A stretch of DNA of 64,000 nucleotides, taken from Eledone cirrhosa (lineage: Eukaryota). Below, one piece after another: positions 1,921 to 4,454 of this stretch. How positions within the stretch are numbered: the first letter of the stretch is position 1; each line of letters starts with the position of its first letter. The stretch is taken from contig OZ024747.1 in assembly GCA_964016885.1 (NCBI GenBank), forward strand, positions 44,020,001 to 44,084,000. Direction: 5' to 3'. A program made the translations under genes and the position numbers. Under the pieces are notes generated by a model that saw nothing but the letters and a program-made list of their open reading frames with translations, did not search any database and was not told the origin of the DNA.

Positions 1921-4454
1921 GACACAGCTAGAGACTTATAGAATACTTAGCTGTGTACAGGAACTGGTTTGAAAGAGCGGTTGCCGGTCCGGCAGAAATT
2001 AGAAATTGGAATAAATGCTCTGAAATAGCGATATATATGTGAATATAGATATAGAATATTCGAAAATATTCTGTATGTTTATAATAAACATTTTGAAGAC
2101 CTAATCGCTATAGAATAGAATACGTCACGTATTACAATTAGATTCTCGATAAAAGCAAGGGAAGTAATCTACGCGTTTCATTCTTGTTAGAATTCATCAG
2201 GACTACATATCCAGTGCTTTTATCGAGAATGACACAGCTAGAGACTTATAGAATACTTAGCTGTGTACAGGAACTGGTTTGAAAGAGCGGTTGCCGGTCC
2301 GGCAGAAATTAGAAATTGGAATAAATGCTCTGAAATAGCGATATATATGTGAATATAGATATAGAATATTCGAAAATATTCTGTATGTTTATAATAAACA
2401 TTTTGAAGACCTAATCGCTATAGAATAGAATACGTCACGTATTACAATTAGATTCTCGATAAAAGCAAGGGAAGTAATCTACGCGTTTCATTCTTGTTAG
2501 AATTCATCAGGACTACATATCCAGTGCTTTTATCGAGAATGACACAGCTAGAGACTTATAGAATACTTAGCTGTGTACAGGAACTGGTTTGAAAGAGCGG
2601 TTGCCGGTCCGGCAGAAATTAGAAATTGGAATAAATGCTCTGAAATAGCGATATATATGTGAATATAGATATAGAATATTCGAAAATATTCTGTATGTTT
2701 ATAATAAACATTTTGAAGACCTAATCGCTATAGAATAGAATACGTCACGTATTACAATTAGATTCTCGATAAAAGCAAGGGAAGTAATCTACGCGTTTCA
2801 TTCTTGTTAGAATTCATCAGGACTACATATCCAGTGCTTTTATCGAGAATGACACAGCTAGAGACTTATAGAATACTTAGCTGTGTACAGGAACTGGTTT
2901 GAAAGAGCGGTTGCCGGTCCGGCAGAAATTAGAAATTGGAATAAATGCTCTGAAATAGCGATATATATGTGAATATAGATATAGAATATTCGAAAATATT
3001 CTGTATGTTTATAATAAACATTTTGAAGACCTAATCGCTATAGAATAGAATACGTCACGTATTACAATTAGATTCTCGATAAAAGCAAGGGAAGTAATCT
3101 ACGCGTTTCATTCTTGTTAGAATTCATCAGGACTACATATCCAGTGCTTTTATCGAGAATGACACAGCTAGAGACTTATAGAATACTTAGCTGTGTACAG
3201 GAACTGGTTTGAAAGAGCGGTTGCCGGTCCGGCAGAAATTAGAAATTGGAATAAATGCTCTGAAATAGCGATATATATGTGAATATAGATATAGAATATT
3301 CGAAAATATTCTGTATGTTTATAATAAACATTTTGAAGACCTAATCGCTATAGAATAGAATACGTCACGTATTACAATTAGATTCTCGATAAAAGCAAGG
3401 GAAGTAATCTACGCGTTTCATTCTTGTTAGAATTCATCAGGACTACATATCCAGTGCTTTTATCGAGAATGACACAGCTAGAGACTTATAGAATACTTAG
3501 CTGTGTACAGGAACTGGTTTGAAAGAGCGGTTGCCGGTCCGGCAGAAATTAGAAATTGGAATAAATGCTCTGAAATAGCGATATATATGTGAATATAGAT
3601 ATAGAATATTCGAAAATATTCTGTATGTTTATAATAAACATTTTGAAGACCTAATCGCTATAGAATAGAATACGTCACGTATTACAATTAGATTTTCGAT
3701 AAAAGCAAGGGAAGTAATCTACGCGTTTCATTCTTGTTAGAATTCATCAGGACTACATATCCAGTGCTTTTATCGAGAATGACACAGCTAGAGACTTATA
3801 GAATACTTAGCTGTGTACAGGAACTGGTTTGAAAGAGCGGTTGCCGGTCCGGCAGAAATTAGAAATTGGAATAAATGCTCTGAAATAGCGATATATATGT
3901 GAATATAGATATAGAATATTCGAAAATATTCTGTATGTTTATAATAAACATTTTGAAGACCTAATCGCTATAGAATAGAATACGTCACGTATTACAATTA
4001 GATTCTCGATAAAAGCAAGGGAAGTAATCTACGCGTTTCATTCTTGTTAGAATTCATCAGGACTACATATCCAGTGCTTTATCGAGAATGACACAGCTAG
4101 AGACTTATAGAATACTTAGCTGTGTAGAGGAACTGGTTTGAAAGAGCGGTTGCCGGTCCGGCAGAAATTAGAAATTGGAATAAATGCTCTGAAATAGCGA
4201 TATATATGTGAATATAGATATAGAATATTCGAAAATATTGTAATACGTGACGTATTCTATTCTATAGCGATTAGGTCTTCAAAATGTTTATTATAAACAT
4301 ACAGAATATTTTCGAATATTCTATATCTATATTCACATATATATCGCTATTTCAGAGCATTTATTCCAATTTCTAATTTCTGCCGGACCGGCAACCGCTC
4401 TTTCAAACCAGTTCCTGTACACAGCTAAGTATTCTATAAGTCTCTAGCTGTGTC

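Follow-up and report, generated by a model that had tools for sequence, protein, structure and literature searches.

Within a 64,000-nt stretch of Eledone cirrhosa DNA (the window, to which all coordinates refer), tandem copies of a 310-bp repeat carrying a hammerhead ribozyme stand in two blocks that face opposite ways and run out into (TA)n on both sides. How did a concatemer come to be reversed within itself, and what kind of enzyme could have placed it there? We approached these questions by mapping the ends and the junction of the array onto its repeat unit, and by comparing them with other insertions in the window and with public contigs.

Layout of the inverted array

Tandem Repeats Finder called one block at 1721-4239, with 8.1 copies of 310 bp, and another at 4237-5300, with 3.4 copies of 310 bp, and the reverse complement of the right block is the left block (Table 1). 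We numbered the unit from window position 4237 (u1). The inward match of the left block reaches 4239 (u68) and the right block extends leftward to 4237, with neither TA nor filler between the arms; the flip that a preliminary description had placed at about 4237-4240, with a shared ATT, is an overlap of exactly these three nucleotides. The 5' end of the left arm falls at u66-68 and that of the right arm at u1-3. Because the ribozyme lies on the plus strand in the right block and on the minus strand in the left, the arms are fused 5' to 5' and their 3' ends point outward.

Both outer ends run straight into (TA)n, where any target-site duplication would be hidden by the microsatellite. The left arm extends to u108 at most, its final 8 nt being the same as the TA tract (true end u100-108), and the right arm extends to u134, with 2 nt in common with its tract (true end u132-134). 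The two outer ends are offset in the unit by 26 nt at maximal extents (range 24-34), in agreement with the preliminary description, in which the ribozyme-sense 3' ends faced outward into (TA)n and stopped within about 35 nt of each other.

Table 1. Coordinates of the inverted array and of the elements compared with it.
Feature	Position	Strand	Remarks
Left (TA)n target tract	1695..1728		1721-1728 doubles as unit positions 101-108
Left arm	1721..4239	minus	2519 nt, 8.13 units of 310 bp; no tail
Right arm	4237..5300	plus	1064 nt, 3.43 units of 310 bp
Head-to-head junction	4237..4239		3-nt microhomology ATT
Structured domain u27-121	4263..4357	plus	closing stem and two hairpins, common to sister family
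Type I hammerhead, first of 3 plus copies	4479..4521	plus	predicted cut after 4515 (u279)
26-nt 'tail'	5275..5300	plus	u109-134; right outer end only
Right (TA)n/(TG)n target tract	5299..5375
Hydra-like Penelope-like element (PLE)	32525..38778	head-to-head	same layout as array
PLE endonuclease arm	34917-35330	minus	inverted, 5'-truncated, ~135-nt tail
PLE RT arm	35242-36932	plus	carries a frameshift; endonuclease part not seen
Sister-family insertion (~80% identity)	39387..39590	head-to-head arms	independent, short; both ends into (TA)n

The head-to-head array is very probably a real feature. A BLAST comparison of window 1-1694 with 5376-9000 found no match that would make the flanks mirror images of each other. 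No strand-change joint, whether of this junction or of another inversion in the family, was listed among the contigs of three public sets (X1, X2 and X3), in which short contigs drop rare junctions and which possibly come from other individuals or species. Microhomology of at least 3 nt occurs at 6.9% of all 310 x 310 possible inversion junctions of the unit (P=0.07), and two random ends lie no more than 35 nt apart in 23% of cases (P=0.23). At the array locus neither the junction overlap nor the end offset exceeds chance expectation, and support therefore rests on recurrence elsewhere.

We accordingly dropped both the 3-nt overlap and the end offset as stand-alone proof, each being compatible with chance. 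The left arm carries three single-unit variants (3695, 4081 and 4127) and the right arm none. All three variants of this 3.6-kb array are in the left arm within 545 nt of the junction, which may be a result of error-prone synthesis at the join or of uneven polishing.

The repeat unit and its ribozyme

Three ribozyme cores lie on the plus strand in the right arm and eight on the minus strand in the left (from 4060 to 1890), and the core is intact in all 11 units that span its position. The Rfam model HH9 matched with E=0.0033 and 23 bits, under its gathering score of 52; at gathering level the hammerhead was missed and U6 was the sole Rfam match in the window. Helix III, as we read it from the sequence, consists of one pair and a palindromic tetraloop. 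A similar helix III motif is found in the axolotl HHR_Amex1, which likewise combines a weak helix III with a palindromic tetraloop and works better as a dimer (PMC7229834; this source, like PMC8557442, PMC3846280, PMC4476161, PMC13282606 and bioRxiv 10.64898/2026.07.22.740005, is cited from excerpts). Of nine Xenopus elements assayed by Li et al., eight were without cleavage according to the excerpted text (bioRxiv 10.64898/2026.07.22.740005). Because the predicted cut lies far from both outer ends, these ends are not the ends that ribozyme cleavage would produce.

The unit has 33.9% GC, occurs as tandem multimers of 8.1 and 3.4 copies of 310 bp, and is non-coding, with no ORF of at least 120 aa within 1721-5300; the RT and GIY-YIG ORF that an autonomous PLE would have of its own are absent from the array. 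The excerpted criteria for non-LTR retrozymes are a unit of 150-450 bp, GC under 45-50% and tandem multimers, and the known metazoan examples resemble the array unit in being non-coding tandem repeats with a type I hammerhead in each copy (PMC7229834; bioRxiv 10.64898/2026.07.22.740005). Judged by this sequence definition (type I hammerhead, size, GC, tandem arrangement and non-coding character), the unit would class as a non-LTR retrozyme; self-cleavage and expression as linear and circular RNA are further marks of this class.

The fold of the unit beats 100 of 100 shuffles (z -4.4). Within it, the domain u27-121 folds alike in both family members (z -2.7 and -3.2), and one of its hairpins shows an A-U to U-A change between the unit and its sister, as judged by eye from the two folds. 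The 3' strand of the closing stem is bracketed by the two outer end sites. This domain is a candidate RT-binding and start module. Two 5' ends, that of the right arm (u1-3) and that of one X2 contig (u309), lie just 3' of a long stem, u219-307, that encloses the hammerhead and may be a preferred RT stop (n=2).

Recurrence of the layout in the window and in public contigs

The independent sister-family insertion ends in the same way: the left arm meets TA at about u108, and the right arm does so at about u134-139. Set X2 gave 578 contigs when compared with the unit. Among the loose ends listed for this set (6 of 32), 3' ends entered TA at u108 in nine contigs and near u139-140 in six contigs of a variant and one further contig (u139); the same listed ends included one non-inverted 5' end, with TA directly ahead of u309 (window 4545), and two that resemble unit variants. 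The clustering of outer ends predicted in the preliminary description was thus found in the sister insertion and among these listed X2 ends, and the recurrent ends place the tail at 26-32 nt. The u108 cluster in X2 could look larger than it is if TA has expanded, or other insertions have nested, at the ATATATAT inside the unit.

The unit was present in at least 20 of the 24 public runs listed, from 16 studies, and pattern scans gave no match in viral contigs or metagenome contigs. No RNA run was listed among those with the unit, which says nothing for or against expression. In X1 and X3 it appeared as one low-depth closed contig of 340 nt each, a form expected from a tandem array no less than from a circular RNA. 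Position u89 is A in all 13 unit copies of the array and G in 95% of the X2 depth and in the X1 and X3 contigs. The shared A is consistent with a single template variant for both arms; the difference could instead be one between populations or species. A near-identical unit was found under 17 organism labels, for which the possible explanations are a broad range of hosts, carry-over of a circle present in large amounts, and diet.

The closest large counterpart of the array in the window is a PLE with the same layout (Table 1). Among the 26 homologues of its RT, at 37-50% identity, three carry an Octopus name; a single database ORF, P0011, matches both its RT (E 3e-51) and its endonuclease (E 7e-11). 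The motifs RWR, DKT, YRDD, CTLC and CPH were found. Pfam matched GIY-YIG to the endonuclease with E=0.034 at best and left the RT pieces unrecognised at E 0.01, and we assign the element to the PLEs because of its homologues and motifs. A loose hammerhead core lies at 33687 on the minus strand. The Hydra clade is characterised by RWK and DKT motifs, a C-terminal endonuclease with CxxC and CxH, a hammerhead and a (TA)n target (PMC8557442, excerpts), besides a CxCX5C linker, the lack of CCHH and its place in RT trees, and the element at 32525-38778 appears to fit the motif definition of this clade.

We did not accept this PLE as the cognate partner of the array, given a tail of ~135 nt and no convincing homology to the unit (the score of 54 falls between the two shuffle maxima, 50 and 57, and there is one 16-nt exact match). 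That match pairs the 3' region of the PLE (38345-38360) with u52-67 of the unit's conserved domain and is marginal against the shuffles. As the element is frameshifted and lacks convincing homology to the unit, it shows the class of enzyme and not the partner.

The same layout is widespread on a smaller scale. We catalogued 63 inter-TA segments in the 64 kb and tested the 58 of 80-1500 nt for fold-back, leaving out five longer than 1500 nt; the inverted elements 41743-41861 and 58670-58827 are absent from this catalogue though seen separately. Thirteen of the 58 segments fold back, and in 12 of the 13 one arm end lies within 14 nt of TA while the other is 32-144 nt away, a count for which the shuffle control covers the fold-back score only and not the flush ends. 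Four fold-backs carry a hammerhead-like core in both arms, pointing outward in all four. In one small family the flush end is identical in three copies and two complete tails stop at the same place. One flush end plus a tail is thus a common layout in the window, also in unrelated families. Many of the small inverted insertions have near-palindromic centres, and two other small copies are nested to within a few bases (by eye). In the PLE and in the elements 11955-12176 and 9333-9432, neither arm includes the whole of its partner, so that a separate templating event was needed for each.

Judging from sequence, several separate families of non-autonomous PLE type appear to share the 64 kb. Hammerhead-like cores also occur in small elements between TA tracts at 22673-23647, 39615-39818, 20392-20480, 58670-59313 and 38830-39120. 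A further head-to-head element bounded by TA spans 686-1694; it has hammerhead-like cores at 926 (minus) and 1566 (plus), its interior is rearranged in a complex way, and its right TA tract is the left target of the array. A TA-targeted inverted element at 59528-59893, whose family also includes 11955-12176, looks tRNA-derived by eye in its inner part; ARAGORN found no tRNA, this element included. We take the A- and B-box-like motifs in 59528-59893 as a possible sign of a SINE-headed PLE passenger. Two perfect palindromes, at 10931-11158 and 20078-20183, are centred on a TA tract; their arms measure 66 and ~22 nt, and their geometry is unlike that of head-to-head insertions.

Other features of the window include an abundant repeat of ~190-230 bp, which forms partial tandem arrays and, once, an inverted pair (10737-10931, 12310-12901, 29649-31109, 40590-41286, 47730-47858 and 55641-56760) and a 26-bp minisatellite of 26 copies (43610-44291). 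Reading frames of LINE-type RT and of zf-RVT, in part frameshifted, lie at 49077-54557 and 47833-48684. The U6 snRNA match (10602-10706, minus, 90.9 bits) is full-length, adjoins a TA tract and may be a gene or a retrocopy.

Origin of the array

The layout of the array is the published one of Penelope-like insertions, a point that the preliminary description had missed. PLE insertions are known for an inverted 5'-truncated copy, a tail of 30-40 bp and (TA)n targets (PMC8557442, PMC3846280; excerpts), and retrozymes have been proposed as PLE passengers (excerpted text of PMC7229834 and bioRxiv 10.64898/2026.07.22.740005). We consider that the array is probably a single insertion of the hammerhead-ribozyme repeat into (TA)n, likely by a PLE protein with RT and GIY-YIG domains that primed synthesis on both cut strands. 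In the proposed sequence of events, the repeat would be transcribed, self-cleave and then be circularised. A PLE protein, perhaps as a dimer, would bind the structured domain u27-121 and cut both strands of (TA)n. Synthesis would begin at u100-108 from the left 3'-OH and at u132-134 from the right one, which would set the limits of the tail, and each RT would circle the 310-nt RNA several times, or follow a linear multimer, to give 8.1 and 3.4 units. The 3' ends of the cDNAs would then pair via ATT/AAT, prime each other's second strand and be sealed.

Several observations agree with these steps. Priming by the top strand of the left flank and the bottom strand of the right flank on ribozyme-sense RNA yields exactly the observed orientations, and the predicted cDNA 3' ends are complementary through ATT/AAT, which supports the earlier suggestion that two cDNAs were joined. 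The preliminary description had also held that both strands were primed at an AU-rich patch of the unit. Strand polarity fits two-sided priming; 8 nt of possible pairing with TA is available at the left end only. Possible pairing with TA at the right end is 2 nt, and the right and recurrent u139-140 ends lie 26-32 nt beyond the patch with 2-3 nt of pairing, so that this part of the claim did not hold. The offset of the right end instead matches the PLE 'tail' between two homology-independent start sites (PMC11167929). A purified PLE protein (PAc, Anolis Poseidon) cut and extended both strands, used two internal start sites that bound the genomic tail, needed no target homology and is predicted to be a dimer (PMC11167929); these in vitro data are from the Poseidon clade, which is other than Hydra. 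Start sites without need of target homology fit one end with 8 nt of pairing and another with 2. Arms of several units are what rolling-circle copying, a route put forward for retrozymes (PMC7229834, excerpts), would give, and a linear multimer may also have been the template. We set aside a link between the junction ATT and the ATT cut preference of PAc, which belongs to another clade; such a cut would leave a 3' end and not two 5' ends.

A PLE could also have acted through a single target-primed cDNA, the left arm, which folded back via ATT/AAT and copied itself, the new strand being cut or ending at the tail; self-priming of this kind (PMC3846280) and endonuclease resolution of the tail (PMC8557442) appear in the excerpted literature. 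The near-palindromic centres of many small inverted insertions in the window speak for this route, and the right arm, at 1064 nt, fits inside the left from four of eight possible sites. However, self-copying would need to end at u134, a point at which other members of the family end too, and the nearest site carries variant 3695, which the right arm lacks, an objection if the change arose during copying. Copying in the opposite order would require a later expansion, since the arm with the tail is the shorter one. Self-copying also predicts nested arms, and fails for the PLE (tail plus endonuclease versus RT) and for 11955-12176 and 9333-9432. We therefore consider it unlikely for the array. 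A later inversion of a plus-strand array, for example by recombination of the flanking (TA)n with the unit's internal ATATATAT, plus a deletion, would draw on the self-complementarity of (TA)n, on the coincidence of the left end with the unit's internal 8-nt AT run, and on the position of all three left-arm variants within 545 nt of the junction. A clean event, though, leaves TA at the junction and restarts the array at u109, and we observed no TA and a right block that begins at u1, which upholds the earlier view that a simple later inversion does not fit. The inversion would also call for a loss of 202 nt or a duplication of 108 nt, and the two-ended layout recurs in unrelated families, leaving this explanation very unlikely.

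An artefact of assembly or of a chimeric read, such as a fold-back read in a collapsed repeat, would account for a junction without contig support in X1, X2 and X3, and near-identical arrays are prone to copy-number mis-assembly. Yet the flanks are unique, and the lack of mirroring between them argues against a fold-back read; the right arm stops where independent copies stop, and old, diverged neighbouring elements show the same layout, so we give this possibility very little weight. Much the same holds for two independent insertions in opposite orientation in one TA tract, or for a LINE as the mobilising element, through twin priming of the L1 type. TA tracts in the window do gather nested insertions, LINE RT ORFs are present in it, and L1 twin priming with a second RNA is known (PMC4476161, excerpts). 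Such histories are hard to reconcile with the missing TA between the arms, the u89 variant common to both, the lack of a poly(A) tail, and a tail offset and (TA)n target that are PLE traits, and we find them highly improbable. Priming of both cut strands by a PLE protein remains our preferred account.

An L1 insertion carries a poly(A) tail at its 3' end, and in L1 twin priming the two arms are successive pieces of one linear RNA. The array is like L1 twin priming in that both target strands prime and two cDNAs are joined head-to-head through short complementarity (PMC4476161, excerpts), and differs in having no poly(A) and in arms that start at nearly the same unit position. It also resembles PLE insertions with an inverted pLTR and a tail, those of the Hydra clade among them, which share the head-to-head 5'-truncated inverted copy, the one-sided tail, the (TA)n target and the hammerhead (PMC3846280, PMC8557442). 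Against the excerpted descriptions of such insertions, the array is a multimer of a 310-nt non-coding unit in both arms, without an ORF, its tail of 24-34 nt is slightly short of the quoted 30-40, and its junction is asymmetric (u68/u1) and not palindromic. The activity of PAc in vitro resembles the array in the extension of both strands, the two internal starts bounding a tail, the AT-rich target and a start near a stem-loop, and differs in clade and in the use of an autonomous RNA that is linear; neither cDNA joining nor the copying of a circle is shown there (PMC11167929).

Unlike the array, published retrozymes are not described with head-to-head arrays, tails or (TA)n ends in the excerpts of PMC7229834 and bioRxiv 10.64898/2026.07.22.740005, and their link to PLEs is drawn there from co-occurrence and pLTR similarity, whereas for the array it comes from the insertion footprint. 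A term search of the excerpted bioRxiv 10.64898/2026.07.22.740005 found no discussion of inversion, tail or target site, and the word ribozyme is absent from the excerpts of an octopus repeat annotation (PMC13282606). No report of a PLE footprint on a retrozyme array was found in the literature searched, which comprised main texts without supplements and few subscription papers. All parts of the array's layout are already published, and a specialist's surprise should be moderate for this reason.

Which enzyme mobilises animal retrozymes and how PLEs form inverted repeats with tails are both described as open questions, and the array links them by carrying the full PLE insertion footprint on a retrozyme concatemer. 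This footprint is another kind of evidence than co-occurrence or sequence similarity. We tentatively propose, as a possibility that falls somewhat short of even odds, that a dimeric PLE protein acting on a small circular ribozyme RNA, an endless template, would reverse-transcribe that RNA in rolling-circle fashion from each strand of a single cut, with two fixed start sites bracketing a conserved stem. Under this proposal the joining of two cDNAs, and not self-priming, would be the general origin of the PLE inverted repeat and tail, and the domain u27-140 would be a portable signal for head-to-head concatemers into (TA)n. Non-nested arms would discriminate two-cDNA priming from fold-back self-priming genome-wide, and the 310-nt unit with its mapped start sites is a ready substrate for in vitro assays.
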